Shown piece by piece: positions 1 through 33,780 of a stretch of 64,000 nucleotides of DNA; positions within the stretch are counted from its first letter, which is position 1, and every line of letters starts with the position of its first letter. Below the pieces are notes generated by a model that was not told the origin of the DNA, did not search any database, and saw only the letters and a list, made by a program, of their open reading frames with translations. This DNA is from Patellaria atrata CBS 101060 (lineage: Eukaryota), in assembly GCA_010093705.1 (NCBI GenBank), contig MU006093.1:765301-829300 (forward strand), given 5' to 3'. The position numbers and the translations under genes were made by a program.

Positions 1-450
1 AGCACGCTCGAGGGCCACACGGGCTGGGTCAGCGCCGTAGCGTTCTCGCCGGACGGCCAGGTCGTGGCATCGGCATCATACGACCGCACCGTCAGGCTCT
101 GGGACTCGAAGACGGGTACTAACCAAAATGTTATTAATGTAGGTGAGGATATTGGGTACCTTAAGTTCTCCTTAGGGGGATATCACCTAGATACGAATAA
201 AGGAAGGATTAATATTTATCCTTCTACTAACTCAAATTTTTTACCACAGCAGAGGTGTTTATTTGGTCTCTTCGTTCAACAAGACTGGGTGTGTAATGAT
301 AAGATGGAGAAGCTTATTTGGCTTCCGCCGGATTTTCGAGTATCTACAGCGGAGTTTCGGGATCGTCTCCTTATACTGGGTCATGAATCAGGCTTTATTA
401 CTTTTCTTGAGATTATAGCTCTTACCTCCGCCCCACCCACCTCCTCTTAA
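1..450 (+). CDS. 3' end of NACHT-WD40 (HET-E/HNWD-like) NLR protein; 5'-truncated by window edge
   Basis: Frame 1 from base 1 reads [35 protein letters not shown], a canonical HET-E-type WD40 repeat. It is followed by the typical fungal NLR-WD tail (LDTNKGRI...WV...LIWLPPDFR...LILGHESG). Stop at 448-450. The NACHT domain itself is outside the window and is inferred. Confidence 0.85.
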
Positions 451-1339
451 GTTGACCCTGTATTTATATTGAATTACAAAGGTTCAATTAAAAATTATAA
501 TGTTGTTCTAATTCTGGTGCCGGCTCGCCTAGACTGTCACTCACTAACCAGCTCAGATGGTCAGTCACAAAGCCAGATGGACTAGACAAGTACTGTCCGC
601 AAACGGTTAACCGGTTACGGCAGGAAAAGATGGTTGCAGCAACTGAATAAACTATAGTGACAAGACATGATAGTATACGGTATAGAATAGGACAAAGGTG
701 ATCTTATGTCAAAGGGAGGTGGTCTCGTGGACGAGGCTTTGATAGAGTCTATACTAGTAGATACGGAACTTTGCAAGTCCAGGTCGTGCGGCTTCTTCAC
801 TAACGTAAAACTCCTTTACTGGGGGGTTGGCTAATGATAGGGGACAATATAACGGGTGCACTTCGCGTCAACAAGATTAACATGCAAGATTCTCTCTCTT
901 TCAACCGATTAGTGTCAGACTGAAGATCTTGGTGGGAAGGATAATCAAGTATATCTCCTACTACACACGCGCTTACATATACCATCCTATCTCTAATTTA
1001 CTATAAATTTTAAGAGCATAAATTATCTAACTATATAAGCTTTCATGTAGTAATCGAATTCTAGAAATATATCTATTAATTTATTTGCATAAATCTAGCC
1101 GCTACGGTAAACTATTATACCGCGTGGGCTATCTACACCCCGGTTCCCTATCTTTCGCTCACACGTGTCTTCATTTATACGGACAGTAATACATCCCTAT
1201 CCCTATCATCAATAGATTTCTATTATCTTATTTTAGAATAGAAGTAGAAGAAATTTCCCTAATTACGTCTTACGATTAAACATACCTTCTTCTATATCCA
1301 ACTTCTATATCCTATACTACAGTCCCCCCTAAGCCCTTT

Positions 1340-3850
1340 TCTAAGGCTCTATCGGCTATACTCTATAGGTATCGAATAAATATTCCCAGAAATCCTCTCT
1401 AGAAGGAAATAAGACAGCCGAACCTAAGTTATAAAAGTAGTAAGGATAAGGACAAGGAAAGGATAATACACGCCTCCGTAGTTTTCCATCAATATGAGCG
1501 TCGATGTGCGTATAAAGAGTATACACATCAGGAAACTAATGATATCGCTTCGCATCTACTCCTTTAGTCCCTAAACAGAACGGATAGGTGCCGGCCTAAA
1601 TAACTATACTATAAATTGTTATTACTCCGCAGAATAGTCTAAGGTTTTCCAGGTGAGTAACTATACGCCTCCTAGACTATTTTATTATCAATTTATTATA
1701 CGCAACTGTAGCAGAAGTACTGTCGATCCGGTATTATCAAATCGTTCGGAACATAGTGCTCATTTGCTAAGTGGGCAGCCAATTCATACCCGATAAACCC
1801 TTTTTCTTGACAGTTTTCCTAAAGATATACGTCCAACAGGAATTCTTTAAGTGACCTATTATATATATCGCGACCTCTTTTCCCGAACATGCTTTGAGAT
1901 TCTTGTCGCATTTCTTTCCGTCTCCCTCCCTACACCGGGACACGCGAGCTCGTGTGATAAGGTCTAGTGCCTCTACCTTTTGGGCAATACGCTTTTACCG
2001 AGCATATAAGAGTAAGTGCTTACTCTTTCGCGCTTTTCCGGGGCTATTATGAATTGATTAGTTCGCGTGCTATTGGCGTGTAGGAGAGAAATTTCACCTT
2101 GCTAAATCCGTATCGCAGTTCGGACAATTACCTTCTTGTTAGGCTTCGCCTCAGGGTACTATATACTTCCGTTTGAGGGAGAAGACACCAGTATCATTGG
2201 TTCGAGCATAGAGCTCTCAGTAATAAGAGGATCCCCTTTTAAGTTATATAAGGTATCGATGAGCTTAGCCCGTTGAGGCTCGTATTTCAAAACTGTCTGT
2301 ATAAGTATATGCTCCGTTCGTGAAGGGAGAAGTATATCCGAAGCTTCAATATCGCCATCAAACTGGTGGTCATCTTGAACCATATCCGACTGAGGGATGC
2401 AATTGAAATGGGCTGAACGAGCGTCACGGAATTGGTCTCGGCGCATGCGACTAATATCTTCACGCCTCCTTTCGGCGGTGGTCACGGTAGATATCGCGTT
2501 AGGTCTACGTCCCGGGACCGTCAGGTCGGCGCCGTGGGGTGGCGGTGCGTTAACATCCCTCTCCAGAAGCATTGTTCTTGAGAAATCGAAAAGTTTTGCA
2601 CGCTGAGGTAAACCACGCATGATCTATTGGCCATCCACTACCGACTTTCGGGAAATATAGGCCTGAAAAGTGATATCATTTGTATATCCCATGCGCTGTC
2701 TGCTTTGGGCTGTAGTTGCGTCTTGATCAAGCTTATTTGCGAAACCACGTCTAAAGCAGTATGCGAATATGGGGCCTTTATATCCTACTCTCTCCCTAAG
2801 GGCTCGGAGTCGCCCTCAATAGCCTTTGTGTTTCAAAATCTGCGTCTCTGATATGAGGCCGGACGGTGTGACAGCTCGTACAATAAGAATATCCCTCATT
2901 TCAGGTTTAGCTTCTAAGGTAATTGCGGCTCGGGAGGCCGGAACCTGGATCGTATTGAAGGCTGCCAGATCAGGAAGCGCAGTATAAGCTTGATCCGCAA
3001 TCGCTAGAGCTAAGAAATGTGTGAATACGCAAGTCGCTTTGTCGGCCATTGGAGTTAGAGTAATCTCTAGGCTACTAAAGTTATTAGCTTATGGGCAATT
3101 ACAAACTATGTTTAGAATCTGGCAAGATTACCTATCTAGTTTGAACCTACGACCCTTCTGATTGTGAACTGCCACACTCATAGTCCAAATTGCTCCTTTA
3201 AACGCAATCATAGACTTAGTGAGAGTGATGTCCTTGTAATATACACCCTCATTGCTCTCTAGCCAGCATCTCGACTCGATTAGTTCGCCAGGCCGGAGGA
3301 TCAAATCACTGAGTAGAAGAATTACAAAGTGAAGCCAGAGCCGCCAGCGAGGGTGTGCGTACTCGAAGGTATCGAATTTCCATGAATACTTGAGTAGATC
3401 CTTCGTGACGGGATACGATGCCACAGGTTTTGGTTGACATTTACTTAATGCCCCTGATCTTTCTCGAATATCTGTGTGAATATAGTCGGTGATTAAGTCA
3501 AATTCTTTCCGTCCAAATTTATAGTTATGCTCAAGGAAAAGGAGTAGTTATATCTCTCTCGATAGCTTTTCTAAAGGACGGATGGTGACTTTCTGTTCGA
3601 TTTTGCCCTGGGTATTTCCAATCCAGAAATGTAGAAAAGCCTTCATTTGTGAAAGTCCAGGAACTTCCAAGAGAGGTACATATACATGGCGCGTGTTCGG
3701 TAGATATTGAACAGCACATCTATTCTATATATTAGCTATAGAAACTATAACTCAGAATAAGAATGTACTGTTTGAATCGACTGCGAAGAAGGTCAAACTT
3801 CTCCTTTAAATAAGGACGAATAACGGGCCGTACGTTATCGTCGATTTGCG
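1340..3850 (-). pseudogene. DUF3435 tyrosine recombinase (Starship captain), inactivated by RIP-like mutations
   Basis: Joining minus-strand fragments gives MKAFLHFW...KPVASYPVTKDLLKYSWKFD..Y.HPRWRL...LRPGELIES...NEGVYYKDITL, then an intron (~3074-3131), then CVFTHFLALAIADQAY...AYCFRRGFAN...RQRMG(Y)..DITFQAYISRKSVVDGQ*IMRGLP, and C-terminal YFCYSC...HLENL..FCG...(Y)PFCLG...RYH*F...HID...CPYP. These match the DUF3435 architecture and the tyrosine-recombinase R / HxxR-like / H / Y motifs. In-frame TAA/TGA/TAG stops. Ends approximate. Confidence 0.88.
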
Positions 3851-3872
3851 AAGGGGGGTTGCAAAGACTTAC

Positions 3873-6546
3873 CACCATAAACAAATCTTTGAGCATGAAT
3901 ATTCGCAACAACCATTACGACTTGTGCGGTGATGGATCGAGCAACTTCAAGCTGAAATAGGTTTCTCCATGTCACCAGTATCTCTATGTCGTGAAGTAGT
4001 TACCCAAATGTCTTTGGCGTCTCCTAAGAGTCGGACATACCCTGACTGTCCAGAGTCAGACAACTGATTTGAGATTACAAGTATCGTACGCAGCCAGAGA
4101 GATATCACAGCAAGAAGCGCATTCCTATCAATTGTCCACTGAGGGGCTTCAAGAGTTTCAGGATCAACGATTCCGGTGTCTACGTTAAATGTGTATTGAC
4201 CGGTATTGGACGGCTTACTTTCCGCTATCCGATAACTAACATCGCTCTGCCACTTGAATACCATTCGATCCGGATTCTGTGTGATTTCAAAGGTTGATTG
4301 TTTATCCGGGATGGGCTCAAGTAATACCACGTTTTTGCCGAGTTTCTTCGCAACGTAACGACGCCCTGTGCTAGGTCCTTCAGGTATTTAGAATGAATCA
4401 TGTGATCTATCTTGTATTGACCGCAAACTAGAACGCTCGTTCTTGGGACTGCCATCTTTAATAACCCCTACCTCACCTGATGCAGTGCTTTCAGATGTCA
4501 TACTATTTTGATAGATTCGACGGGGGGAAGGAAGGTCTCGCCAGGGGTGGTGAAAAGACTTTACTAAGTTTTGGATTGTTGGTCTATACGTCGAGTGCTC
4601 TCTTTCTTTTGGTGATATGTACAAATTGCTGGAACTTGTCGTGGAGTGATGGAGTTCCTCGATGTATGTCGCTCGTTCGGCCTGTTCGGGCTGTAATGAG
4701 TCCAACATTGCATTACTGTCCGTTAAAACTATGCGTATTACCTGCGTTATAGCAGTGGCAAGTTGATTAGAGATAACATGCAACTCATCGTTCCACATCA
4801 CAAGATCCTGGATATGGGCCTGTATCTCGACAATTTTTTGAAATGGTAAACGATGGTATTTGTCATTCCCTGCATTGGGAAGTCGCAAAGTTGTTGAAGG
4901 TCGTACGGGCGTAAAGTCTCGATCGTAAACTGATGAGAACGATCCACAACGGAGCTCCCAGCGGGAAAGATCCATAATTTTGTAGGTAAGCCATCCTAAC
5001 TCCAGGCCTTCGGGGAGATCTTCTCCAGTTGGATCCCTTGCAAGACCTCGACGTACGTATGACCGCAATGTAGTCATCACGAGAGTACCAGCTAGAACGG
5101 AGACCGCTGAACTCCAATGCAGAGCTCTCACTAATATGCGAGTTAGATTCTGATTGATAAGCACGTTATTGCAAGAACGCTACAACTCACAGTCAATAAA
5201 CTAGATAACATAACCAATGAGGGAAAACCCTATAGCAGTTGCTGCAGTAAAGCTATAGTCCTTTTCTTCGTTGACTCTAGAGGTACGAATCCTTTTATCT
5301 TTAGCCGCATTAGAAATCGCAAATGATGAAAACTTTTGTTCGCTAACTGTGCATGTTCTCTGAATTCGCACCACATGGAAATCATCCGGTGACTCAACTG
5401 GGAAAAATTCTAGCTCATCCGTACTACCTTTAATGATATCTAGACACACGTTAGAAGTCAAAAACTATTTAGATGCACTGGTGGTATGACTTACGGGAAC
5501 ACAATATGATACCAATGTTCAAAATTAGAGTCCCTTATGAATCATGACTTTAGCCAGTAACACGTCTTTAAGGAAGGGGACAGTAATTACCTAGAAGCAT
5601 GCACAGATATCCATAGCCCGCAATATTAGATCCGGAATTTTTTAGACTCCAGTGGTATGTTGTAACTCCCGATATTATAAGTATCAGCAGCTGTACAATT
5701 ATGCCGGTGATAGCAAAAGCCCACACCTCCCGTCGCCGCGGGAGAGCATCTGCAACATTCAAGGTAATGTTAGGAGCTTGGGTCGTCAACCTAGTCTAGC
5801 AATTTTGCTAACATCCGAAAAGTCGGTGGGTCCTTTGACACCATATACGCGTTCGTTATATGCAGTTGTTAAGTCGTATACCATATTATTGACGTCAACT
5901 TCGGCATCAGTCTCATGGTACTTCCTATAAATGAACTCCTTGATCGGAGCATCTCCACGATCGCGAACTACATACATCAGTTGGAACCTGATTGATGGAC
6001 ATCATTTGACTAACTTATTTCTCTACCACTCCACAATTCACAAACCGATTCACTTATGCTCGATAGTAGTTCTACCTCGGCAGTTGGTCTACTTTCACGG
6101 GCTCTAGTTTGAGTGTCAACGTATGTAATCAGAAGTAGAGACGGACCATTCACCTCCTAATGATTGCTTTTAGCCATCTTCTACTACCTATACGAATTGC
6201 ACTGACCACACTAGTGAGTATTCCAATTGGAGCCATTGCAAGAAGGATATTGTCGGCCCATCCCATCTACAAGACATTCAGCATCGGTCAATTTGAGCTA
6301 CAGGAGAATACTTACCGCCTGGGACATGAATTGTTTTGTGACGTGTTCACCAAAAAGGGTGAGAAGTGGAGCAAGGTCTGTGAACAAATTGTTACTGAAA
6401 TCTTCCCCTTGGAAACCGCTGAAAGTCAAATTGCCGGCCATGTTAGTGAGGAACAATAACGTGGATATAGCTAATGATATATAAGCTGAACCCTCTTGTT
6501 GAGCTGATGCGTTATCCCCGGTCATGCCATTCCTATTAGGATGCAT
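3873..6546 (-). pseudogene. Frameshifted/truncated multi-TM protein of the fungal 'DFSNNLFxDLAPLL' family (members usually annotated as ankyrin-repeat proteins)
   Basis: Spliced fragments read EDFSNNLFTDLAPLLTLFGEHVTKQFMSQA/MGWADNILLAMAPIGILTSVVSAIRIG...ARES..AEVELLSS.SESVCELW...APNITLNV...VLAGTLVMTTLRSYVRRGL...W..D..ALLAVISLWL...RLLG. The reading frame is broken across several ORFs. No ankyrin repeats are present before the captain begins. Confidence 0.75.
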
Positions 6547-7788
6547 TGCAGATTTACAGGGAATCTGCTTTTCGCTCGGTATCGGCAGGGTTCAACCAAT
6601 GGCGAGCTTCCTTATTATGTACTCCCCAGATTGTGGCTGGCTGAGGTTGTAAAATAGCTGCTGTATGCTAACCCCCTAACTTCAGGACGACTACTCATAT
6701 TATATTCTAGTATTTTCTATTGATCAGACTTCTAGAATCACTGTTCGTAAGATAATACCCCTTTTGAAAACTAGTCTGTTATAGATTCGAGCTCCTCAAT
6801 ATGAATGAAAGCCCCGATACTGAAGGTAGAAAAGGAGCTGAAAGAAGACAAAAAGGTATTTGTACGACTTATCTGAAACATATTTAAATAGAAGAATATG
6901 AGCGTAATTAATCATACTTCCATCCAGCGTTCAAACCTTCGTTACCCCTCTACTATTGATATTTTCAGCTGTGTTTGTGATAATTGATTGCACATTCTTC
7001 TAGATATGTTCTCCATAACAGCTGATGACAATATAAGTAATAAACGACTTGGACTGTACTACTCTCCGCTGATGGATATACCTTAAAATGCCATTGACAA
7101 CCAGTAGAAGAGAACGCAACTATTCATGCAATGTCACCTTGTTGGAATTGAGGGTCACGCAAGGTAGCTGGATATCTGAAACTGCTGGAGGCCATGGCAA
7201 TTGAGATGGCTGAACAGGCAATGCTTTAAGATGGCAATGCCACCCACATGATAGTCGACAATCAAAAAAAACACTTTACACCCTCCTATCTACTATCTCA
7301 GCTCATACCAGTGTGTATTCAAACACACCTAGAGACAGGATTATGGTGTTCGAGTAGTTCTATGGTAACTCTGTACAGTAGAAGTTCCCATTGGGAATTC
7401 CGTAACCTACTCGTGGGTTCAGGCATATCCCAAACGATAATTTCTAAACGATACTCTTGTCATTTTCCTGGGAATTTCAGCCTTGACGTACGGAGAAGAT
7501 ATCTCGGTAAAACTAAAATCCATTGCCGAAAAGGCTAACCCGGCAACTTCGGCAAAGCTGCAAACACAACAAACGCGTGCGAAGTGACACCTCAGCCACA
7601 GCAACCGAAACTTGAGCTATCGGTTTTCTCTTTCCACCTTTCCATCCTTCCTCATCGCAATTCATTCTAATACTTTCTCATCGTTAATGTCTTAATATCG
7701 ATCACCCAATTCTCTTCATTTCGTTCGGCTTGGCGTTCTTTTCGTTTGTATACCACGCGCAGACTTGCGATCGGTCAAGAACGCAACC

Positions 7789-10700
7789 ATGGCCGACTTA
7801 CAAGAGCTGTTCGCCCGACTGAAAAGCACGAATAATCCAGCGACGACTTCGAATCAACAACCTAGCAGCACTATTGACCAGTCCACCAGGTCGCAAAGTG
7901 GATTGGACCAGAATCACAATTACCGTCCTCCCAGTGTCTCATCCCCTCTCTTCTCGCCCTCTCCAGGTGGCCCCCAACCGCACCACGCATCCGCCATTAT
8001 GAGCCCCAACACATCTGCTCTTCCGACACCATTACCGGAGCAGAATGTTGCTACTCCTGCTGGTGATCGCACTGCTAACCTTCTCAATCTGCTCAAATTC
8101 TCTCAGAACAACCAAGGCCCTGCCCCTTCACAGTCACCTTTCCCTTCTGTCGAGCGTCGAGCCTCGCACAACCTCAGTCAAGCTTCGCAAGCAGACAACA
8201 ATGTTATTCAAGGTCGAACTACATCAGCGTCTGACCTTGTTGCCTCTATTATGCGTAAAACATCGTCTACAACTTCTTTCCAGTCTCCTCCCTCAGCCTC
8301 GCCTGTACCCAGCAGACCTGAGATGCGCGGTGAACGATCGACGTTAGCGATGGAAAATCCTCAGGACTTTCTCTTGAAACTGCTCAATCAACCCAAACCA
8401 ACGCAAGGAGATCCGTTAACGCGACGGCATACGGACAAATCCCATCAGTCAGTTGAGCCGCAATTGCCTGAAGTGGAGGTTGACGACCTGGCGCAAGACC
8501 TTGCTGATGCTAAACTTGAAAATGTTGATTCCAATCCGGCTACAACTCAACAGAAACAGCGTTCTCATCCCACAATCTTTGGAGTTGATGAACCCCACGC
8601 ATTCGAGCCTCCATCCACCAACAAGAGTTCGATTTTCACCTATGTGAACCCTTTCGAACAACTTTCTGCGTCATCGCCTCGCAACCGCACCCCAAAACCC
8701 GAAGCAAAGTCTGGTAGTACGACCCCAAAGATTGACATTCTCAAGAATAGTGGCAATATCGCGGCTGCTGATGCTTCGCTCCCAACTCAGACAGCCCATA
8801 AACACTCTGCATCAGATACTCTGTCTTCTCCTATTAACTTACCACCTTCGATGCCTAATCATCCTCATCGCGATAATGCTGAGATGCTCGAGCGAGAGAG
8901 CGTTGTTCAGGCCGTTAGCGAGGTTGGTAAGCAGGTTGATAAACAGATCGAGGAAGCCTTAGCCGCAGCCGATGTTGGCGCAGCCGAAAGCAATACACTT
9001 GAAGCTGCTGTCCCTAAAGATGACGTTTCTATTGACGAGCTGGAACAAGCCGTCCATGAGGTCGCCGTTGAAGCCAAGGAGGAATTGAAGAATGAAGATA
9101 GTCGTCGCGAATTCAAATCTAGCTTGCCAAAGCCACTAGCTGACGCAGTTGAAGAAGTCATTAATGAAGCGGCGCAAGAGAATGTTGCCGACGATTGGGA
9201 AAGTGCTGATGCCGAGGATAATGCAACCAAGAATGGAGAGTACTTAGTGAGGGTTTACAACTTTCCGATTAGACCATTCGTTGCTATCGACATTAACCGG
9301 TTACAAGAGCCTCCATTGTCACTGCGTCCGGACAACATCCTTGATGTCGCTCGACTCAAAAAGCCGTTCGAACAGATTGATCGCACCCTTGTCGTGGCAA
9401 CGAAGAACTTCATAGTATATGCATTACCCAAGAGCGGACCAAAGAGTGGTGGCTTTCGTTTAATACAACAAGATACTGGCCAGTATAAGCAAGTTTTCGC
9501 GAATACGAATGAGCGTATCTTCAACCTTTCTATTTGTGCCCCTGCTATAGGAGGACCTGCTGCTGCTTCCATTTTACAGGATGCCGAAACTATCCTCGCC
9601 ACTGGCATTGACGGGACAGTCTATTGGGCAATGAGCTCTACTAAGGACCCGGATCTATTCACGGAGAAGCGTCTGGAGGACACTGGTCTAATCTTTCCCC
9701 CAAGCCAGGCCCATGACGATAACACTTCTGGAGGTCAGCTCAAGACAAGGGCTAAGAAGAGTAACCGCCATCCCGAATTTTTTGGTCTCGGGAGGGGTAG
9801 ATGTATTTATATAATCTGGCCCCAAATGGCTCGTGACAGGCGCTACATGGATACCAAGACACGAGTGTGCGACACCGTCAAATATCTTGCTGAGCGTCAG
9901 CTTCAGATTACTATTGGAAAAGCTGGTAAAGATTTTGCATTTAGTGAGGATGATACTACAATAGTCTCTTTGGACAAGGCTGGTAAAATGAAGTTCTGGG
10001 ATATCCGCGAGCTTACCAATTCTGCATTCAACAGTACTCCTGGCTCATTCCCCAGTTACGATATCCGCACTCCGCTCTTAACCCTCTCAACTTGTTCTCC
10101 AAGCGATAAATCCTGGCCTACCTCTGTTTTCTTCGTCGATAAGGAACGCCCTTGCGTCAAGGGTATTGCCTGTCGATATCTCATCGTAGGCATGAAGCAG
10201 AATCATACACTTCAACTTTGGGACCTTTGTCTTTTGAAACCTGTGCAGGAAATAAACTTTCCTCACGAGAATGAGTCAGACCCGATCTGCAGTATTGGCT
10301 ATCATCCAAGAACAGGAGTCATCGTTGTGGGCCATCCAACTCGTAACTCTATCTATTTCATCCACCTGTCTGCTCCTGTCTATAACCTTTCTCCTATGCG
10401 ACAGGCTAGGTTCATCGAATATGTAGCAACCAAGTCTAACAAGATCCCCAAGCCGGAGTCCACAGCAATCATGAGCGGAGTTCGAGAGTTTTCCTTCGCA
10501 TCCAAAGGCCAGCTTCGCAGCGTTGAAATCCTCAACGATCCCATCAACGCAAATACTGGACCAGAAGAGTCCCCAGCTCTCTTCGAGTTGTATGTAATGC
10601 ATTCCAAAGGTGTTACTTGCATGTCTATCAAGCGAGAAGACTTAGGTTGGAGTCAAAACAACAGGGTCCTTCATCCCGTTGATGCTCAAAGCGAAGGCGC

Positions 10701-12448
10701 AATAACTGTCTCTGAATTACGATCTTTCAGTGTGTCTACAGCAGACTCTTCTACAACTGGGGAGACACCTGAGCAGCCGGAACCAGCTACTCCTTCTAGA
10801 ACTACTCGCGAATCTTCAAAGAAGGAAACAGCAGCGAGCAGTCGGGTAACACAGACCCAAAACCCGGAACAGTCAATCCGAGCTTCTACTCTAGCGAAGG
10901 TCGAAAGTAAGCAGGATGCGGCCCGTGCTGCAATTCTGAACGGCGCCGACAAGACTGAGAAGATTGAAAAGTTTGAAAAGTCTGAAAAGAAGAAGAAGAA
11001 GCGTGGTGCAGGCGCGGAGACCACTTCACAGCCGCCAATCGCTCCTTCTCTGGTAAATCCAAGCCTAGCGACACCATCATCCTACGCCATGGCTGCTCAA
11101 CGTACTGCATCACCAGCTATGCAGTCTACTGCCGCTCCGGAAGTTGGACTTACTTCCCAGCCCGCCGAATCTAGCAAGCAGCCAGAATTCTCTTTCAAGG
11201 ATCTGAAGAAGCTCGAGTCCGGCATCTCTACAGAGATCACTAAAGCTTTGAACGGAGAATTTGAGTCACTTTACCGACGCATTGACGAAGATAAACGTGT
11301 TCAAGATGCCGCTAGTGCTGCTAAACAAGACGCAGTCCTCCGTCTGGTGTCCAGTACTCTAACAGATAACGTGGAGAAGAGCTTATCAAGAATTATATCG
11401 GAGAACCTCAGATCTGGTCTCCTCCCACCTCTTTCAGAAGTTGTTGTCGGTGCTATTGAACGAGGTCTGAAGGAAGCCCTTAGTCAAGCCGTTCACAGTG
11501 TCGTACCCCGTGAGATCAGGTCGTCTCTACCCATTGCTATCAGTCGAGCCTTGCAAGAACCTGATGTACTACAAATTATCTCTGACCTTGTTTCCACTAA
11601 AGTGGCTTCCATTGTCGATTCTCATCTTGCCACCGCCCTCTCTACGACCATTGTTCCTACTTTCACCAGTAACGCCATCTCTGCTGCGCAAAATATTGCC
11701 ACTGAAGTGGAGCGTCGTGTAGGAGAGCAGCTACGCGAGGCCGAAGTTCAACGTCAAACCGATTCGACCAAGATCGAGCAACTTACAAGCCTTGTCCATC
11801 GTCTATCGGAGACCATTCAATCCATGGCTGCTTCACAAGCAGATTTCCAAGGCGAAATTCTCAAGCTGCAGAGCCAAGTGGGCTCCAGTGCCAGTCGTGA
11901 TGCTCCTGCTATTTCTTCCGCAGCTGCTACCCCAACTCGCGCTGCGACACCACCGCCCGAGAAGACTGATGAGGACCGTGAGAGGGATGAGATTACTGCG
12001 ATGTTACGCAACGGTCAATACGAGGAGGGAACTATCAGGGTAAGTATAATTCACGTGTTCTGAAGTCATCAAATACTAATCAAACCTTCAGTGGCTCCAA
12101 TGTGGCTACCAGGGATCGCTTTTCGACACTCTCTTCATCCGTGTCAACCCGAACTATATCAAGTCGCTCTCTCCGCTCGTCGCGCTATCCATCTCTGCAG
12201 CCGTGACCGCATCGCTCGAGACAAACATCTCCGAACGCCTTCAGTGGCTCGAGATGGTGTTTAACAGCATCGATCCCCGGGATCCGGAGCTCGAAGAGGT
12301 CACGCCGAAGATCATGGACGTGCTGAGCCAGAGGCTTCAAGGCGCTTACATGCAGGTTGCCGAGGGAAGTCCCCAGAACCCGATTTTGAGGAAGATCAGC
12401 CAGCTCGCGAGGAGGGCGATCGACCTCAAGGCTCTCGCGCTGAGTTAG
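7789..12448 (+). CDS. EDC4/Ge-1/Pdc1-like mRNA-decapping scaffold (disordered N-terminus, WD40-like propeller, helical C-terminus)
   Basis: ATG at 7789 in ACCATGG context; 1.4-kaa ORF with a beta-propeller-like core (AGKDFAFSEDD...KFWDI, NHTLQLWDL). Intron 12040-12091; last exon WLQ...LEMVFNSIDPRDPEL resembles the EDC4 C-terminus. Confidence 0.75.
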
Positions 12449-13237
12449 AACCGCCATCCATCCTAATTGCATTGTACGAGGTTTCTTGACGACACAAACG
12501 CTTTGGACATAGATCTTGGTCGCGGGTTCTGAAATAACGTCCCGCTTTAATCCCTCTTTGCTTCTTCTCGTCTGCGCTCTCAGAACTTCTTCACCACTAC
12601 TCGTCGCCATAACGCTTCATGCGCTTCTCCACGTCAGCAGCTGGATATAATCCTCGTGTATAATTACCCCTATCCTACACCAAAACTACAACCCCTTCAA
12701 ACAAACTCCCAAAAAAAAAATACACCGTAATCTCGCAGTCCCACCACACTCTTTCCGGATCCCGGACGAGATCCACTACTGTCTTTACCCTTAGAGCATA
12801 GTCAGGCTGGAAATGCCCAGCTGTCCTCGTTTCCACTCCTTGAACTGTGGGTTTGGTTTAGTTAGGCTACATTGATGCCGGTGGAAGTCTGTAATAATGT
12901 GGGCAATGCTCATGAGGGATGATTGTACGCTCTAACTAGTTGGAGGAGGAACTGAGATGGAAAGAGTTCACAGTGGAAAATAGCTACATAGTCAACCTAC
13001 CCTTCTGACGGCCTCACTGATCGTGCGGACGCGAGGTCTGGATGGGGAAATGGGATCAATGTTGTTCAAGAGTGTATAGTGCACGTGCGTGAGAACTTGT
13101 GTGAATCGTGATAATTCGTGTTGATTGAAATTCGTTTAACCTTCCTTCGTTCCCTTCATTTCAGATGATAACGTAAACCTTGAAATATCCCGTTGTGAAA
13201 AGATTGAGACACCTACATTCATCCCTCAGACCCTTAC

Positions 13238-14957
13238 TTACCCAACCCAGGACTTAACGATCTTCTCGACGCCCTCGAGGAGCAGATCGGCTAGAAAGAG
13301 ACGTCAGCATTTCATTCCCCAAATGACATATAACAATAGAAGAATAAACGACTCACCATGATGCCTCTGAAAAACTAACATAGGCCTCAACCTAACGGCC
13401 TTCTCCCCGGACCCACCAATATTAATCCCAACCTCCTTCGCCTTCTTGAGCACCTCATCCCTCCTCGGACTATCCCACGCGATAAACGTGCCCTTGCCCT
13501 TACCTCTCAAATTTCTAAACTCCTCCGGATACGCCTTAGCAAGCTGCTCAAGGCCATCGAACAAATAATCGCCCGTGACCCTCGTATTCTCGACCAAATC
13601 CAGTCTCCCGATCTCGTCGATGATGGCGCGGAACAGCAAAGCGCGGGCGGGATCACCCATCCAAGTGTTAAATTGGCGATACGGCTTGTTAGGCCTGAGG
13701 TCGTCACGGCCGAAGTAGTACCCCGCGGTCTGGGCCTTCTTGCTGAAGGTCACCATGTCGGGCGGGTCCTGGAGGTTCCAGTGCTCGTGGGCCCAGAACT
13801 TGCCGGTGGCACCGACGCCGGTTTGGACCTCGTCAACGATCATGAGGATGTTGTGTTTACGCGTGAGGGCGCGGATGCCGCGGAAGAAGGAGGCCGAGGC
13901 GTGGTTGTCGCCGCCTTCGGACTGGACGGGTTCGATGATGGCGGCGGCGGGCGGCTTGGGCCAGGTGAGGATGAGCTTCTCGGCTTCTTCGAGGCAGCGC
14001 TTTTCTTCGGCAGCGTTTTCTTCGGCGTGCTCTTCGAGGGGGTATTTGAGGGCGGGGAAGGGCGCTTGCGGCCAGTCGAAGGCGGGGATGTCGAGTTTGT
14101 GGATGGGTTTGCTGCGGGTCGTGCTGAGGGAGCCAAAGAGACGGCCGTGGAAGCCGGATTTGAAGGACATGATGGAGAGCTCGGGGGAGCCGGGGGATTG
14201 GTTGTGCATGGCGGAATGAGTCTCCTCGGCGGTAAAGTCGACATGGTGACCACCACGCTCATGGCTACGTTTCCAGATAAATGCGGCTTTATATGCGAGT
14301 TCGTTTGCGTCGGAGCCGGCGAGCGCAGTGAAAACTTGATTGAGTCCCTTTGGTGCCACTTTCAGGATACCAGTCTCTAGGATGTCGACCCAGTCATGTT
14401 GAGGGAAGTTTCCCAGGGCTGGACGGTTGATGATGGCGCCAACCATCTCAGGAGAGCTTGCTGCTTCAATGAGATTGTGGTTGCTGTATCCTACGGGAAT
14501 CGAAGCAATTTGGGCATAGCTATTGAGCATCGTTAGTTAACTATCCTAACTCGATTACTTTACATAGAAGTCCACTTACACATCTAACAAAACATTTCCG
14601 TCTAGGTCTGCGATACTATGCACTGTTAATGTTAATTGACCACAAAGGATTCTACAGAACTTACTAGTTGCCGATGCTCTTACGGTAGTCTGCCATCATG
14701 TTCAAGCTCCGTGTATCGAACACCTTGGAGAGACGTTGGATTGCTTCCTGACTCTTAGGTCCAGGGATCTGAGTTTTCATGATGGGTCCTTTAGGTTCAT
14801 CTGGAAAGTATGGCTCCTCTCCGCCATTGGCAGTGCTGGTGGCTGCGGCAGCCGTAGCATACTTTCTGCTCACAGGCACTGAAGTCCTCGAAGAACACAG
14901 AGTTGCCTGCCTAATAGCTGGCCGGACAATGCTTACACTTCTCATCATAGAAGCCAT
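13238..14957 (-). CDS. gatA: 4-aminobutyrate (GABA) aminotransferase with N-terminal mitochondrial-type presequence
   Basis: Class III PLP aminotransferase motifs FHGRLFGSLSTTRSK, IVDEVQTGVGATG, TFSKKAQ, FNTWMGDP. Three short introns; last exon ADLLLEGVEKIVKSWVG*. Confidence 0.96.
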
Positions 14958-14983
14958 GGCGAGAGGGAAAGAATAGGAAGCAA

Positions 14984-15145
14984 ATTGGTACTTATGGAGG
15001 ACGTCACCTCTCTCCCCCGGAGATTGGTATTAGCTTCCTAATAAGATTAATTGGCTATTACAACATAATGAGTAACGGTATACCTTGGTCCAATTAGTAA
15101 TTGCAAGGTCCGCTACTAGAAATAACCCCTCTGGGAATGGATTGG
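14984..15145 (-). promoter_or_regulatory. Cluster of CCAAT boxes upstream of GABA transaminase
   Basis: ATTGG at 14984, 15023, 15050 and 15141, plus CCAAT at 15090, all within ~190 bp of the start codon. Confidence 0.45.
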
Positions 15146-15891
15146 AGAATAATTGTATGGTTAGAAAGGAGAGAGGGAATTGTGTTGTGGAAGGGCGAAG
15201 TGATGTTTTGCGGAAAGCCATCACCATGTCCGGCGTGAACCCCTCGGTGTCGTGACCCCTGCCATAGCTAAAGACGGTGAAAGCTCGGTGATGCTTGTTC
15301 GTGACCCCACAGTAACCTGAAGGTATGGAAAGCATTCAACACCTTCAATGGCCGCGGAGAACCGCTGCTAGACCAGATCAAGCAACCCTTTGCGATCCCA
15401 TATCTGCACCATCCAGATCACAAACACTCATCTTTGGTTCTAGGCATTTCTAGGCATTCCTCAATACAGCACCAAGAACACCACGATGCAGCTCAAATGC
15501 AGAAGAAGGATCAAGGGATCATCAACGGACTTCCGACTTGTCCAATTGTCGACCATCCACCGTACCGTTCAATTCCACTAGAGAACTAATTATGAGCACC
15601 CGCCGGGCAGAACATCTCTGAGCTAAATGTTGATAGGAAGAGGACGAAACAGTGCCTTGAAAATGAGGTACTAATACAAACCACCCTTTCCCATCAAAGA
15701 CCACCAATGGACTGAGATTCAGGAAACCACCCACTCTGTCACACCGAACCCCACAAATGCATAAGAGAAAACGCCCGCCCTAAGATTTTCCAGACGCTGT
15801 TGACGTCGGCTGCAGTTCAAGAAAATGAGGCCAGAGAGATGCAACTATGTATGACCGGTTCATAGTGAGGAAGACACCGACACCAACAACA

Positions 15892-18800
15892 CTACTGCCC
15901 CGAGATTTCCTGGACGCTCTTTTGCTCCATCCTCAAGCGCTCGAGTTCCTTGTCTTTACGCCGTAGAGCTTCATCATGCTCAGAGGATCCGTTAGTAGGA
16001 GGTGTTGCGAGTTGCATAGGACTTGGATGCTCGCTCAACTCCGCATTGTTCCGCGATAGGTCAACAACATACTTCGACCCATCCGTACCATGCTCGTTAT
16101 AACTTTCTGTCATTCCGTCGTCCACCGTCATCTCGTCCGTATCGAATGTGTTCATATCACCGTCTTCAGGCCTGCCTTCTGTAGGCGGAGGGGGCGGTGG
16201 TGGAGGTGGGGGTGTGTCCATCCTCGACTTCTTTGGTGAGCTCATATCTTCATCCCCAAGAGAGCTTTCACCGTTTGCGTCTTCGTATTCACGCTTACGT
16301 TTGAGATCCGGGGATCCCGTTGGCGATGTTCCGTTCTTGGTCGGAGATTCCTCATCGTCGGAAATCTCGTTCATCATGTCGTCATCAGAGTCGGCCTTGG
16401 CCTTCTCATCATCTTCCTCAGGAGCCTTTACCACCTCTGATGCTTTAGGTGTAGAACTACTGATTTCTCCTTTGGCCTTTTCTGCCGCCTTCTTCTTCTC
16501 TGCTTCCTTGCGTAGTCCTTTCAGACATTCATCAAAATAGCCTCTGACGTATTTCTTGAGGGCTTTAAGACCCTTCTCGTGCATCTTAGTAGGATCATCC
16601 ACACGTTTGTTCTTGTAATCAGACTCAACCATCTTTTTAGTGATCTAGAAGAAAGAGACTTTAGCATCTGACAATGCCGCCAATGGGGTATTCACTTACC
16701 TTCTTCGCAAACTTCTTGAGATCGTCTTTGGGCATCTTGTTGTTGTATTTGTCCATTATGGGTTTGATATGGGTGAAAAGCTACATATCACATATCAGAA
16801 TAGTGATATCAAATAATATGGATCAAACATACCGTATTCTCGTACAGCTTCTTTTGCTTCTCTTCGGGGAATGACCGCCATTTCTCCTTACCCTGTTTCT
16901 TTTCTAGTTTAGGTTCTGTTGACTGCGGTGTTGCTGAAGCCGATGGTTTATCCTTAGGCGTCTGAGACTCCGTAATGCTCTTGATGATGTCTTGGAGTTT
17001 CTGCTCGTTAGTTTTGGCCTTTGGCGGAGGCGGGGGAGGTTGGCTGGCTGGCATTGTCGGACGGGTCCAGGTTACCTGGTTGTTTCCGCTATAATAGTAG
17101 GTTTGTCCATTGGATTGAGCTGCAAACCAACCCGGAGGTAGTGGTTGTTGAAAAGGCGGCCGTCGGAAGGGAGGTCGAGGGCCATTGAAGAAATTTGGGT
17201 TCCGTTGTGGCATACTACTCCGTGGTCCAGCTGGCGCTGCAGGTCCTCGGGGTGCATCAACGGATCGTGAACGGGAACGTGTTCTAGATTTTGAACGATC
17301 CCTGGGGCGAACTTCACGGCGTTCAAACCGGTCTGTCGCAGCTGCTACGTTGGGATCCCGTTTGACACGAGGAATTCGATAACCAATTTCAAGTTTACTC
17401 CAAATCTCTAACAACGTAGATGCCTTTCCTTCGACCTTTTCATCGCCACAGGTCTTGAGTTTCTCTACGGTTTCTTCAATCTTGGAATCTTGAATCTTGT
17501 TCCGAGTAATCCTTGGTAAGCTGTCCAGGATATCCAAAACCTGCGAGACAACATTGTAGTCCTCAATCCACGTATTTAGAGTTGTCTTTAAGATCTGGTA
17601 GCCGTGCATCTTCACTACCCGGTTGCGCACCCGTTCATCGTCTGCACGCTGTATCCGATTGAGCAGTTTGACTGCAATCCATTTCTCCCTGCATTGCATA
17701 AGGGTTGCCATAACTTTAGTGACACTACCCTCATCCAAGGACTTGGGCTGCACATTGTTGACATACTCCTCATCATCTTCACCTGTCTTCCTCTTACGGG
17801 GTTTCTTGGCAACAGCAATGTCCCAACCATCACCATCGTCAATACCCAGAGCTTCGATAGTTGCATGCGAAAGTTTAGTGGCACGATCAGTCTGTGTCTT
17901 TCCACCAATGAATCCAGTGCAGTTTGGTTCGCCGCAATAACATGGCTGTGGGTCTGCACCGTATCGATCGACGTTGTAGTTGAAAACGAGCTCCTCTCCA
18001 GCTTTGACGTTCCGCTCGGCAAAGATGCCCATCCGCAGTTTGTCCCCTACCACCCACTTGTCCACATAACAATTGGGATTGCATGAGTGATTGCAGAAGC
18101 GTCCTAGGTTGCCCTTCTTAGTTGCATCAACAAACTCGCCTTTACTGAGCGACATGAAATAAAAGTGCTTGATCCCCTCCTCATCATACTGGCGCATTCG
18201 TCGGTGGAACGTGTTCTCGTTGATCACCTCGCCAATATACTCAAAGATAAAATCATTCGCGCGTAGAGGAGTGTTAGCTCGTAGACCATAACCTTTCTTT
18301 TCAGTTTTGATGACCGTGACATCTGCGTATTGCTTGCGTTGGAATCGCTGGTTGAGACAGTCCGTACCACAAGTGCAATCCCCGATACACTCCATTTTGG
18401 TCGCTCGATTGATACAATCGGAATCTTCGCCGCACGCATTGTTGCTCTTCGTGATTGGATCTAAAAGGTATCAGTAAGAGATGGATCAATTTACGTCGTT
18501 GCAAAAACTTACCCCATTCCTCAGCACAGTCACATTCGAGAGCATGGTCGGTAGTCCCTAAATACTTAGCTGCATAACTACAATCGTCAATGACCTGAAA
18601 GCTCCTTGTTGCCTCAGGAGTGCTATCCGGAAGATCAAGAAACAAAGGCGGAGTCCTAGACATGACCTTATGAGAAGACGCGCGCGATAATTTTGGCGCT
18701 TTTCCAGGCTCCAATTTCACCATTATGTCTCCACCGATGACCTCTTCCGTGTTGTCGATCGGGGACGGTGTAGCACATTCTAACTTGATCGGAGAGTGAG

Positions 18801-18990
18801 ATGAAGATTTTACTTTCAACTTCGACGGTGAGGTTACGTTGTTGGGAGCGTTGGAGCGCGCTTTCTCAAGTTGCGAACGCTGGGTGGTGACCGCACCTGC
18901 CCCATCTTCCGATGTATCCGCCTCAATCTTCATTTCGCGAACCTCTATTTCAAGTTGCGCGGACTTCTCCTCCCGCTCATTATCGGACAT
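15892..18990 (-). CDS. SET2: Histone H3K36 methyltransferase Set2
   Basis: AWS (CLNQRFQ), SET ([26 protein letters not shown]), post-SET (CYCGEPNC), WW domain (LPPGW...YYY...TWTRP) and SRI-like C-terminus; three short introns. Confidence 0.97.
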
Positions 18991-21900
18991 AGCGATGTAT
19001 TGTTGCTCTACGATATGCCTAGTACGGTGATTGAGCCTTGCGGAGGGAGTTGTAGAAGAGAAGCGTGAGAAACTAAGCGACTGAGGTTATGTGTTTGCAC
19101 CCAGACAGCATGACCTTTACAGAGTAAGCACAGGTTTCGCCGCTCGACCTCGGGCGCGCAGAAAATATCGTAATCGCAATAAAAATGTCTTCAACGGCTG
19201 TAGACTCTAGATCTTGCTAATATGGTGAGCTACGTGTGTTGTCGTCGGCTGAGATTTGCAGGATTCGGTCGACGTTGTTCAGTAGGTCGTGTCCCTCTGC
19301 TCGGTGCGCAAGAAGAGACAGAGTACTGCTGTAGAAGGACTTGGAGTATGGCCGCTTTGGCAATCGAGTTTGAGCTGTCTCACTCCGCGAGGAAAGGGTG
19401 GATGTTGGAAGGGAGGTAATGGGAGTAGAAGGTATGTGGATCATAAAGGGTTCGCGTCTAGGTACAAGCCCGTCATTGCTTCACCAGTCCAGCTAGATTA
19501 TTCAAGAAAACCCCGTACTATAACCGATCTAAAGAGAATCGCAAAGTTGAAGGTGAATTAGGTTAAGAGAATGTGCATACCAAAAGGTGACAAAAGATGA
19601 GGCTCTTTGACCCGGTCCGAATCTTGAGATACAAGCCGACATCCATGCTTACCTTAAGTTCGCTTCGCCTGACAAGAAAGATCTACCTGTCAAAGACCTT
19701 GGACCTCCCCTCTCACCTTTTAAACTTTACAATCGCAACAATGCAGCCTACTTGTGCAGCAATTCAGTACAACAATTTCCCGAAGCATAATTGAGTCCAT
19801 TGCTCCATCCTCTATTTGGGTATAAGAAGGCAAGGGAGGACTTTTTGGCTTAAGACCCGAAGAGGCACGAAAGGCCCCTATCCTAACAGAGCCTCGGTTA
19901 GCCCTATTCCAGATCAGACCAATCTCGGTCGGGTATCCGTATAAAAGAAAGAAGAGCCACGAAGTACTTGAACAGGTCATGAATACAATGTTTCAACACA
20001 AGATAAGGAAAAGCTGTAGCAATAGTTACCGTAAAGTCACGATGGGGATATTATCCCACTTTTTAGGTGGAGTCCTTCACTCTCTCCTTTCTGGCCGGAT
20101 GCACTATCTAAGATAGTGAATGCGTAGGTTCTTCATTCACGATGTCCATTGTAGTTTTGGAGCCTGGCGATTGAAGCGAGTATGAGTAGACAAAACTACT
20201 TTTGGAGAAAAATCAGTCAGCAAGCATCCATATCCCCCCAACACCAAGATCCGGTACGTCTTGTAGTTTCCGCGTTCAACGACTTAGGATGCCCGCAGGA
20301 ACGAAACGGTAGGTGGGCAATCGTACCAAAGTATTATCATAATCAAGATCCGGCAAAGAATCAAAATATGATAAAGGAATGAAGCCCAGATTTCTCGACA
20401 GGTAATTCAATTACTATCTAATGCAATTCTGGCACAACACTAGGGAGACGTAGGATAACTCATGCATTTGAAACACTTTTCGATTCGCTGGAGTGGCCAC
20501 AAATCTGTTAGGCGTACCCTTAAGCCCGTACATGCATACAGCTGCGGGGGCTGGAAAGTCAGCGGTCTTCTTGGTCCTACTGACCAGTTAACTGGGTCAT
20601 TATTTGCTATATGTTTTGAGAAACTGGGAGCATGAAAGACCCACTGCGGCAACATTGACTGTAAGATATAGAAATGCTCACCTGACATAAATCGAGGTAA
20701 TAGTTGTGGCGCCAGAAATACTGATGCATCAATGCGCTAACTTAAAGCAATCAGATTCCCCGAAGACGAGCTTTCGATATCCATTCAAGCTGATGTCTCA
20801 ATCAATGTATGGGATAAGTCCTCTATACTTGATAAGGTCAGGTGGAAAGACTTTGGATGTTTTTCATGAACGTGAAAAATTCACCAGATCCCTGGCCATA
20901 TGGTAACTGGATTAAGCCGTTAATCGTATTGTATATGAGAAGTAGTGTAAACAGTCGTGGGTCTAAAATCGGTGAGCTAATTGATGAGAACATTCTTAAG
21001 CGCGCTGTATATTAGAACGGGATTGTTAGGAGAAGAACCAAGGATTTAGATATTGCACCAATGTAGCTGTCTTAGAAAAAGTCCGGTGAGAGCTTGAGCC
21101 TTGAGCCGTTCGTAGTTGGATGAGGTGATGCAGGTTAATCTGGAAAATGTTCGGTATATAGCGTTCTGCATCTTATTTTCGATACATTTCAACCAAGCGC
21201 CGACTGTACTTTTACCATAGTTTTCTTCCCGCAGCGCCATAAAGATCAACGTAAAGCGTGGAGCCATGAACAATATACGTAGAATTGAGGGACGTCAACC
21301 GGGTTGAAGGGTAGAGTGGCATAAAGACTTCCATGGCAATTGCAGAAAATGTCAAAGGGTTATTCAGTCGCCGAAGAAGCGCCTTTGAAGCCCAATAGAC
21401 CAAGTTGACCAACAGGCGTGATGCTGACCAGGCGCGTAGACGCTGCAGTCGGACAAATCCTACAAGACTAGTCCAAACGGAAAATACGATGACCAAATGT
21501 ACTTTTTCTAGTTTTCTGATTTCCAAGAGAAATAGTTGGACTTGCTCGAATTATTGTCGAGGTTAAGGTTAAGAGAGGCGATGCCATTGGTGCCACGTCG
21601 ATTTCTGAGGGAAAAATCCCACGAAGTTGAAAAATCGGTCTTCAAACACGTCGTCTCTCGGACAGATGGCCGTTTTACTCGATGTATATAAAGCTGTAAA
21701 GGATTAGACTTTGGCAGGAAACATTTTGAAATCGAAAATCCGTTGGGCACGAAGCATTGAGATTCTTCGAGACGGATCGCCCATGCAGGGCCTTGTACAG
21801 TACATTGTGTCTGCGACGAACCCGAAGGAAGAAGCTGGTGCTAAACCGTGCAGCAGCTCGAACGCGATGTTGTGAAAAGTGAATGCGCGCAACCAATGGT

Positions 21901-22481
21901 TATGGATCAGATGACAGTTAACAGCCTATGTTGGTTGTATCCATTCTAAGCATGAAAATATAGCGAATGTAAGCATTAGGCGGGTCGGACGAAGGCTTGG
22001 TGGTAAAAAGACACAAAGATAGGCTAGACATGGTGTGTTTAGGTTTTTGGTACTGCACAGTTACAGTAACCTGTACGTAGACGCTGCTGATGCTGCAGAA
22101 CAGCCAGGTCTGCGACAACTCAAAAACGAAAGCGCCAGAGCGCGTGAAAAGAGCAGGGCAGCGACAAGACCGGCAAAAGCTGGAGCCAGCTGGACAGGGA
22201 ACCCCAAGGCGTCAACAGATCAAACGTGCCGAGCTCCTTGCGAATTGTTTCTGATGAACTCTGAAGCCTTTTTTTGATGCTCTTCGTTTTCTCGAAAATC
22301 AGATCTCTCCGGGGAGGGCGCTTGTGCTTATTGGGCGGAAGCGTTTTATTTTCGCCTTGCGCCATCCCGCGCCTGCCAAACCTGGGCCGTTGCGGGAAAA
22401 GAAAAACAAGCCCGACAAGCCCGACAAATGGAAGCCGCAACCTAAGACCCAAATACGCAAAGAAAAGCAAAAGTACGCACC

Positions 22482-22585
22482 TTCCCTACCCCCCCTACCC
22501 CCCCTTATATCCCCCCATAAGTTTTTCTTTCACTTCCCCTCTCCATCTACCCACCCCCCTGAATACCCCCCCTCCCCTTGTCCCT
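22482..22585 (-). other. Poly-C tract cluster (G-quadruplex-capable on the minus strand)
   Basis: Many C4-C8 runs separated by short spacers (ccctaccccccctacccccccttatatcccccc...cccccctgaataccccccctcccc). Confidence 0.5.
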
Positions 22586-23266
22586 TGGATTTTCCGATGA
22601 CCCAGTCGGGTTGTCCCACGAAACTTCAACACCAAGAAAATACTTTGGACTACTGAAAGCGGTTCTGTATAAAGAATAAAATGTCTGCAGATGATGCAGG
22701 GGTATTAAAGAGTATCTTGATAGGTTGATCCGTCAGGAATAATAGGACCAGGCGACACCCAGGTGCCCATGGTCCTTTCGTAGCCGCCATAGTTGTTTAT
22801 CTTCCTTTTCTCTCATTAAAACGCGACAAGAGACTAGTATCTGCACGACATCGGACGTGCAGCTTCTTCTCCCTTAAGGTTGCATGTCCATGTAATTTCC
22901 AGCTCCCAATTGTTCCAAAGGACCCAAAACTCTTTGTACCTCTTGTCTCTTTTCCTCTCACCAGCCTCATGTAACTCGCCTCCAGCTACGAACCTCTGCC
23001 CGTCGGCATGAGCACGCGCGCTGACCTGGTCTTCTTTTTTGTTAACCACATTCGTTTATAACTTTTCATCTCGCACCCACTTTCTTTTCGAATCTCTTTC
23101 TCTGTCACCGGTTCCCGCGCGTCGGGCGTATCGCGCGCATATGCTTCTCGGAATCCCTTGTGACCAGTTCCCTTACTTGTTACGTCTGGCTGCATTTGCC
23201 CTATATTGAAATTCGTTGAGACCTTCGCTTTATCGTTTTCTTTCTGTGCAACAATCTTGTGATAAG

Positions 23267-24384
23267 ATGGACTCTCCCCGGGAGCCACCTTGGTTGGAGC
23301 ATGAAAAGGTACGTAGCTATTTCGCCTCACGGCTTTCTTCCCAGATCGGACCGCACTCTGATATCAACATAGGTCTATTTGTTCGCAGAAATAATAAAGG
23401 CCGCCGGCGTTCCATCACATACACTATATCAAATCATACGGGACGCCGGTATCCAACCCAGGTGGGTGGATATTCCTCTCCCACACGGTACGTCCTCTTT
23501 CCGAGTTTATTTTCAACTTACTACGGTGGACATTTCACTTACACCATCGCCTTGTTATCTCTCCCTTAAGGATACGAAAGGAGAGCTGATTATGTTATAC
23601 AGGGCGATCATTAAGATCCAGCCAGACCTTTTACGAGAATTATGGTACCCCTCCAAGTATACCCGTTTCTTATCCTCCTTCCGGCCCGGCTTCCCAAATC
23701 TATCACTACCCACCGCCCGAAATTCCGAGGAAACGACCTTTGACTCAGGAAACCACTCTCACACCTGCTGGGCGTATGCTCCAGCCTCGACCACCTCACA
23801 CATACCCAACAGATCCATCCGGTGGACCAACTTTTCTCGCTAGTCCGACAGGTGAACCTTCAAATAAAAAGAAACGAGGGCGTCCAACGAAAGTGGAACT
23901 GCAGAAACGAATTGACGAGGCAGCACGCCGGGGAGAAGTCTATCCACCTCCAAAAACACAAAAAGCACGCCCCTCGAGCATACATCTTCCCTCGACCGCT
24001 GAAAGCTTAACACCTACAACACCTGGATTTGCACCTGTAGCGATGATGGCACCACCACCTCAATCACATCCAGGGACTCCATTAAGTCCGGCAGCTCCCT
24101 CGCGGACTCACTCGATTGGGCAGCGATCAGAAATGGGAGAATCCAGATGGGAACACGAACAAGGCCGTCAATTACAGGAACCTTTACCTAGGCCGCCATC
24201 GATATTAGAGGATCCACAAAAGCAACCTACCAACCAAAATCCCGCTGAAGCATCTCGGACAGCTGCAGAACCAACCAGAAGACCACCGCAAGAAGTACCG
24301 AGGCCACCGAATGAAGAGCAGAGGCAGCAAAGAACTACACCACACTCGTTTAAAGAGACAGTTGGCATTCAAGGCGTTCCTTAA
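23267..24384 (+). CDS. AT-hook, proline-rich nuclear protein (conserved fungal hypothetical)
   Basis: Exons 23267-23308, 23373-23487 and 23603-24384 splice in frame: MDSPREPPWLEHEK/VYLFAEIIKAAG...PRWVDIPLPHG/RSL... AT-hook KKKRGRPTK. Confidence 0.8.
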
Positions 24385-26806: not shown

Positions 26807-27439
26807 TTTGTTAGTACTGTTGATTGAATATCGCGAGCGAGAGAAAGGAAGACTAAAGTAATCTGCAGGGACAGCTCGCAATACTTATAGGTGCTCTAGT
26901 CAACGTTGATCCGACTTTCTCGCGTTGTTGTTATTACCGACACGATTCGTGGTTCGGCTTCGTCATGGATTCACTAGTACCGGTCTACTAATCGACGGAA
27001 GGCCGTTTTGCCAACATTCATTTGTGCATATGAGATTTCGTGGGGCGTGGCGATACTTTGTACGGTAAAATCATATTCACTAAGATGGTGGACTGCTATC
27101 ATATATGTTATGGAGTGGTGGACTACAATCCATAATGGGAACTACGTGGTCTCGTTCCTGGATATCGCACGCGTCGAACTCGTGTTACCACCATCGTACC
27201 TGAGATCGCGGCATAACATTGATATCAGCTTCTGCACCTCGTCGGACTCTCAAACCAGTAAAAGTAGGATGCCCGCGTATCACATGCGCCAAACCTGCTA
27301 CCGTGGTGCGCGAGCTCTCAGCAAACCATTTAACTCCTCATCAGACACCACGATCAGACCCTCAAAACACCAATTACTAAACGCCAGAGACTCCTCCGCC
27401 AATCTCATACCTCTACTCCATTTTCACTACGGCTTTTGT

Positions 27440-33258: not shown

Positions 33259-33281
33259 TCTCTCTCTCTCTCTCTCTCTCT
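33259..33281. repeat. (TC)n microsatellite
   Basis: About 11 perfect TC units. Confidence 0.9.
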
Positions 33282-33383
33282 TGTCAATCTCTTACTGTTC
33301 GGTGAGGTTTGAGACAGATTGTGTGATCTGCTTCGTTACTTGTTAGGCTGATTTCATATGGTCAAGGGGACTTTTTCGCGTGG

Positions 33384-33570: not shown

Positions 33571-33572
33571 TA

Positions 33573-33695: not shown

Positions 33696-33780
33696 CCAAC
33701 TTGGTCTAACAAGTTGAGCTTGCCTCAACTCTCCCATGTCGGACCAGTTGCGTTCTTAGGACAGAGAGTTGGCCTTATTA

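Follow-up and report, generated by a model that had tools for sequence, protein, structure and literature searches.

Near its left end the window (the whole stretch of 64,000 nucleotides analysed here) carries on the minus strand what is, with a probability of roughly 85%, a pseudogene of a Starship-superfamily (DUF3435) tyrosine recombinase, of the YXXR type and extending over the family's full length. The locus as a whole spans 1344..3896 (minus strand), some 830 codons with one intron counted in; between 3682 and 1344 the homology is confident, and the start of the pseudogene near 3896 is tentative. It is a relic with no active element: the gene is dead, so no active Starship head is present here and nothing is mobile now.

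The identification starts from a read-through of window positions 1340-3850, translated from the minus strand in one frame with an X at each stop (837 codons, 28 stops). This read-through matches PF11917 (DUF3435) with an E-value of 1.7e-23 and 83.7 bits against a cut-off of 25.8, residues 152-437 aligning with positions 7-274 of the 418 in the profile; the gathering score of PF11917 is exceeded, which places the read-through within the family. When the ORF fragments were scanned one by one, a PF11917 match was found in two of the eight. All nine intact relatives scanned carry PF11917, and tblastn of these proteins covers 3682-1344, each of the nine matching the core in one frame (3682-2135). 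In the alignment with the nine intact relatives (alignment A1), the core-binding and catalytic domains occupy a single frame at 2135..3682 (minus strand). They are followed by a decayed, Cys/His-rich, C2H2-zinc-finger-like C-terminal region at 1344..2134 (minus strand), in which stops are numerous. The frame of 1343-2135 accounts for most of this region, with 1815-1702 lying in a different frame; six of the seven relatives that have a C-terminal domain match 1655-1344 by tblastn (E≤7e-4), in a frame different from that of the core. Overall, homology by tblastn and alignment covers residues ~55 to ~785 of an 824-aa relative. At the N-terminal end, the ATG near 3896 is in a separate frame and the first ~55 codons align weakly; one further frame change near 3730-3760 is probable if this likely ATG is to be reached. 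No second copy of the recombinase was found elsewhere in the 64 kb by tblastn with the nine intact relatives.

A preliminary description of this DNA had placed a recombinase at 1340-3850 on the minus strand, and both the coordinates and the strand were correct; its assignment to DUF3435 is borne out by the PF11917 score given above. All eight of the motifs it named are present, in three frames. The core frame carries RPGE, FLALAIADQAY, YCFRRGFAN, RQRMGY and FQAYIS, while FCYSC is in a second frame (1815-1702) and PFCLG and CPYP are in a third (1655-1344). The statement that the fragments join into one reading frame therefore does not hold, as reaching the Cys/His tail from the core frame takes three or more changes of frame. 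Its description of the gene as a DUF3435 tyrosine recombinase of the Starship-captain type agrees with the PF11917 match, with the full-length extent and with the 5' end being directed toward the core genes.

The catalytic pentad of the recombinase is still legible, as R-K-Y-R-Y. Its residues correspond to R186, K232, Y364, R367 and Y398 of P0001, at invariant columns of alignment A1, and are encoded on the minus strand at 3295-3293 (R), 3157-3155 (K), 2761-2759 (Y of the YxxR motif), 2752-2750 (R) and 2659-2657 (the nucleophile Y). A sixth active-site residue in the same alignment, the near-invariant His of the 'MGH' box, is replaced by Tyr at 2686-2684 (minus strand). The published pentad is R-K-H-R-Y, and HhpA of Hephaestus has a Tyr at the His position (PMC10104507), as does the window copy; the starfish paper describes YXXR in Starship clades 1 and 3, with HXXR kept in clade 2 (PMC11162782). 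The YCFR of the window points to Starship clade 1 or 3, which is a lead from the motif and not an assignment. A count of YxxR against HxxR among the database matches gave 46 Y and 4 H, a rough figure, the pattern being mis-anchored in part of the 74 of 150 matches.

The fold was considered through the intact relatives. The AlphaFold model of P0002 (448 aa, pLDDT 89.5) has Cre as its top PDB match with a target-normalised TM-score of 0.52, and that of P0007 (824 aa, pLDDT 83.1) likewise has Cre as its top PDB match, with a target-normalised TM-score of 0.65; the Foldseek matches of the two models to Cre reach E-values down to 3.9e-7. A Cre-like two-domain fold is thus predicted for P0002 and P0007, the modelled proteins being these relatives and not the window copy. 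At the sequence level, a profile of 42 relatives matches XerA at E=5e-5.

The pseudogene lies in a small accessory patch beside a long block of core genes. To its left, on the plus strand, is the 3' end of a WD40-repeat gene (1..450; PF00400, E=3.2e-14), of which 149 codons fall within the window. The frame is open at the window edge, the N-terminal domains are outside the window, and the gene, which converges on the recombinase, ends at 450. We take its repeats and C-terminal tail to resemble those of fungal NACHT-WD40 NLRs, and it may itself be an NLR. To the right, and adjoining the recombinase upstream, is a multi-exon gene on the same minus strand (3947..6441), which belongs to a family of the Ascomycota (Pezizomycotina) that has no Pfam model. 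It ends 50-490 bp before the likely ATG of the recombinase. It shares well-conserved N-terminal exons with P0153, and an in-frame TAA at 4387 is followed by a further 146-codon open frame; judged from these features, the gene may itself have been recently inactivated. A protein-atlas query with P0153 returned 'hypothetical protein' clusters only. The accessory patch is bounded on the right by a core housekeeping block at 7696..64000. This block contains EDC4-like, class-III aminotransferase, SET/Set2-type, PUF and TPT genes, together with genes for an M28 peptidase, a Ras-family GTPase, an Rce1-like protein, CENP-I and the second-largest subunit of RNA polymerase. The recombinase points away from these housekeeping genes, as is expected of a captain. 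Because core genes fill the right side, an element could not extend rightward, and any element would run leftward.

It may be proposed that what integrated at the edge of this accessory patch was either a Starship-type element or a recombinase gene on its own (solo). Nonsense mutations and frameshifts would then have disabled the recombinase, and its 3' third would have been hit by C-to-T/G-to-A mutation of the repeat-induced point mutation (RIP) kind. The locus is an ordinary transposon relic, marking a place where such an element presumably once landed. By itself it is of little importance: pseudogenised Starship-type recombinases are common and expected (PMC11162782). It does mark the border between the core block and the accessory patch, a possible entry point for genes carried by a giant element, and it is a clean example of relics that are hidden from ORF tracks.

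About an even chance can be given to the insertion of a solo recombinase, that is, of a cargo-free unit of about 3 kb between the WD40 gene and the upstream gene that later decayed. The interval 451-3946 consists of the recombinase and some 900 bp in which a six-frame scan of the spacer (451-1343) for a transposon relic found no Pfam family, and the two flanking genes look like ordinary fungal genes with frames that are intact or nearly so, although they are accessory-looking and not core. Solo recombinases are also by far the commonest class in print: the starfish paper gives 559 bounded elements against 10,212 'solo' recombinases, many of the latter being possibly pseudogenes (PMC11162782). 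Against such an insertion, the surroundings of 451-3946 contain no terminal repeats or target duplication; within 1-12000 the pairs of terminal or direct repeats detected were of 14-28 nt, of low identity and at chance level. In addition, whether solo captains transpose is left open by the starfish authors and is not established (PMC11162782).

A second possibility, which we regard as doubtful, is that the gene forms the 5' head of a Starship that can still be recognised, although it no longer moves, with cargo extending to the left beyond the window; this is the interpretation of the preliminary description, modified for a dead captain. A Starship is defined by a DUF3435 gene placed first at the 5' end, by flanking direct repeats, sometimes by inverted repeats, and by insertion polymorphism, while a Starship-like region has been described as a DUF3435 gene co-located with DUF3723, ferric reductase, patatin-like or NLR genes (Gluck-Thaler 2022, PMC9156397). 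According to the literature, captains nearly always start no more than 7 kb from the 5' boundary of the element, and usually no more than 2 kb from it. The orientation and distance observed here suit a captain: transcription runs away from the core genes, which start at 7.7 kb, and the start of the recombinase is 2.6-3.8 kb from the core block, inside this rule. The end of the downstream WD40 gene could be that of an NLR, one of the four Starship-associated kinds of gene. The RIP-like tract described below reaches the left edge of the window, and a 91%-identical fragment in a named genome indicates that the recombinase family is at least duplicated or shared.

However, the recombinase cannot clearly be called the first gene, since the same-strand gene running from 6441 to 3947, 2.5 kb in length, separates it from the core genes. 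No 5S rDNA or tRNA target site was found by Rfam and tRNA scans of the window, in which one snoRNA match was at chance level (E=3.2), and no convincing repeat marks a boundary. None of the 67 ORFs scanned, out of 79 of at least 120 aa, contains DUF3723, ferric reductase, patatin, NACHT or HET. The sequence available downstream of the recombinase within the window amounts to 1.3 kb. The published ratio of bounded to solo recombinases also weighs against a Starship head. The starfish tables list for Patellaria atrata CBS 101060 a filtered recombinase count of 2, with 0 elements and one genome for the species, and a single genome could not have yielded any element (PMC11162782). A hidden Starship is, on balance, improbable here, and we give roughly one chance in three to the persistence of decayed ('derelict') Starship cargo to the left. 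The fullest version of this reading seems unlikely: the dead recombinase would mark the right-hand (5') end of a decayed Starship with NLR-type and other cargo leftward, and the element would also have had a zinc-finger reader of its target site. If true, it would be the first Starship delimited in the lineage, the closest named relative being in the Patellariales, with starfish calls but no element.

Comparison with characterized systems places the window gene closest to the captains themselves. HhpA of Hephaestus and Kirc of Enterprise belong to the same PF11917 family and have the same Cre-like layout of core-binding and catalytic domains. Their length, of ~800 aa, is similar (the median length reported in the literature for starfish-predicted recombinases is 812 aa), and the window gene likewise points into the non-core side. 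It differs from the captains in being broken by stops and frameshifts, in having a nearest intact relative that is 38% identical, and in not being placed as the first gene of a bounded element. It resembles the solo or pseudogenised recombinases of Gluck-Thaler et al. 2022 and Gluck-Thaler & Vogan 2024, which are likewise undelimited, are represented by fragmentary gene models and have a RIP-type pattern. Derelict regions, as described there, are surviving cargo without a recombinase; here a relic of the recombinase survives and the cargo, if any, would be outside the view.

Crypton DNA transposons (CryptonF), of conventional size, also use a eukaryotic tyrosine recombinase; they form a separate superfamily, which serves as an outgroup in published work, and were compared here by description only. 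That the locus derives from a Crypton-type or domesticated tyrosine recombinase, and not from a Starship-type one, is very improbable. Among the other eukaryotic transposons with a tyrosine recombinase, Cryptons come closest, and DUF3435 repeats were first annotated as such (PMC9156397), but the match here is to PF11917 itself, the family that defines captains; a length of ~830 codons fits that of captains; YXXR is the motif described for Starship clades 1 and 3 (PMC11162782); and a domesticated gene would not be so broken. A position inside the Starship clade, rather than beside it, is suggested by the Pfam match together with the YXXR motif.

Six stops interrupt the core frame of the recombinase. 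Two of them, at 3130 and 3091, are intronic, falling inside a 60-nt GT..AG intron at 3072..3131 (minus strand) that separates the two segments joined in P0004 (3211-3132 and 3071-2819). The other four, all on the minus strand, lie in gap-free, conserved alignment to the relatives. A TAA at 3548..3550 occupies a column at which the seven relatives covering it have K, R or T. A TGA at 2816..2818 falls within contiguous alignment, a TAG at 2624..2626 is situated between the catalytic Tyr box and a conserved IM/IV motif, and a TAG at 2159..2161 is found directly ahead of a conserved YP motif. Since their alignment is free of gaps, these four stops cannot be spliced out. In the tail there are additional stops in every frame, and the last third requires at least three frame changes. 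On this evidence from sequence and alignment, the recombinase gene is a pseudogene through which no open, translatable frame runs. That all residues of the pentad are kept despite the lesions is unexpected for very old decay and is compatible with recent inactivation. A working gene, in which the apparent stops are spliced out or read through, can practically be dismissed: the intron does account for two of the six core-frame stops, and the catalytic residues have been preserved, but the alignment with relatives already contradicts it, in that splicing out the other four core stops would remove conserved residues, the tail would need its frame changes, and the neighbouring genes use ordinary stops.

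The left end of the window has a composition of the RIP type. The composite RIP index is above zero, at 0.05 to 0.64, without a break from base 1 to ~2300, and GC is 0.34-0.47; this continuous tract (1..2300) covers the end of the WD40 gene, crosses the 900-bp spacer and reaches through the 3' third of the pseudogene. The index averages -0.37 across the remaining part of the window, where 37 of 278 windows of 400 bp exceed zero. The 5' two-thirds of the recombinase gene are without the signature (index -0.6 to 0), and RIP alone therefore does not explain the core stops. The RIP-like composition ends abruptly within the recombinase gene at ~2300, sparing the catalytic core. The tract is consistent with RIP that targeted a repeated sequence lying further left, or that spread from it. 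Alternatively, the border at ~2300 may have arisen because only the 3' part of the gene was ever duplicated.

The C-terminal tail is the most damaged part of the window copy. A Cys/His-rich C-terminal region of ~230 aa is common to window positions 1344-2134 (minus strand) and to P0005, P0006, P0007, P0010, P0025 and P0037. The profile of 42 relatives matches C2H2 zinc-finger proteins at profile positions ~550-650 (GLI, 5e-6; Aart, 7e-6), and weak Pfam zinc-finger matches were obtained in three relatives. The AlphaFold model of P0007 contains confident repeated strand-strand-helix units from ~596 to 780; among the Foldseek matches listed for this full-length model there were Cre-type folds alone, and none to the C-terminal domain. 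In the window copy, Tyr replaces conserved ligand His or Cys residues, CPHPxC having become CPYPYY and FWxHxxxxH having become FWEYLFDTY. In all, five conserved His/Cys positions are now Tyr, each of them separated from the family residue by a single CpA-to-TpA or TpG-to-TpA step; the comparison is with the protein sequences of relatives. From its sequence, the conserved C2H2-like zinc-finger array of this subfamily could be a reader of the target site. Full-text literature searches found no description of a C-terminal zinc-finger-like domain in captains, and the tail that is common to the subfamily may merit attention as a DNA-targeting module.

A phmmer search of 1.84 billion cluster representatives with the window copy yielded 331 proteins at E≤0.001, of which 21 reached E≤1e-30; P0002 was the best match (1.3e-72, 38% identity). 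Unlike this exhaustive HMMER search, a word-index homologue search with the read-through core gave no match. In a tree of 89 rows, which were database matches without names and did not include captain or Crypton references, the window copy clusters with P0002 and P0080 with a local support of 93 and sits on a long terminal branch (1.09; the median is 0.67).

The locus had been described as previously unannotated, which is correct in so far as the public models are only fragments. One fragment is already modelled, however: P0004, a protein of 111 aa in the public collection, is the exact spliced translation of window positions 3211-2819. Two further proteins are close to the pseudogene, P0003 with 91% identity over 115 aa and P0019 with 86% identity over 72 aa of a different part; P0003 is a hypothetical protein of Patellaria atrata CBS 101060, the only named genome with a fragment this close. 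From P0003 and P0019 it is concluded that at least one further broken copy, as far as these protein fragments tell, exists in a public genome. P0019 retains the family-consensus RIQL at a position where the window reads RLWL. The starfish supplement lists three recombinase calls for Patellaria atrata CBS 101060, two of which combine short gene models that lie side by side (PMC11162782). In the supplement of the 2022 paper, mention of the species is limited to a tree label and the genome list (PMC9156397).

Contigs related to the window also occur in run X1, which is mainly from another organism and shares 5% of words. Some of these contigs are diverged, come from another organism and lie on conserved genes, and no contig bridges 1-7700. 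Four short contigs of low depth are identical to the window (for example at 3178-3422), which suggests a trace of the window's organism, or of a very close strain, in the sample.
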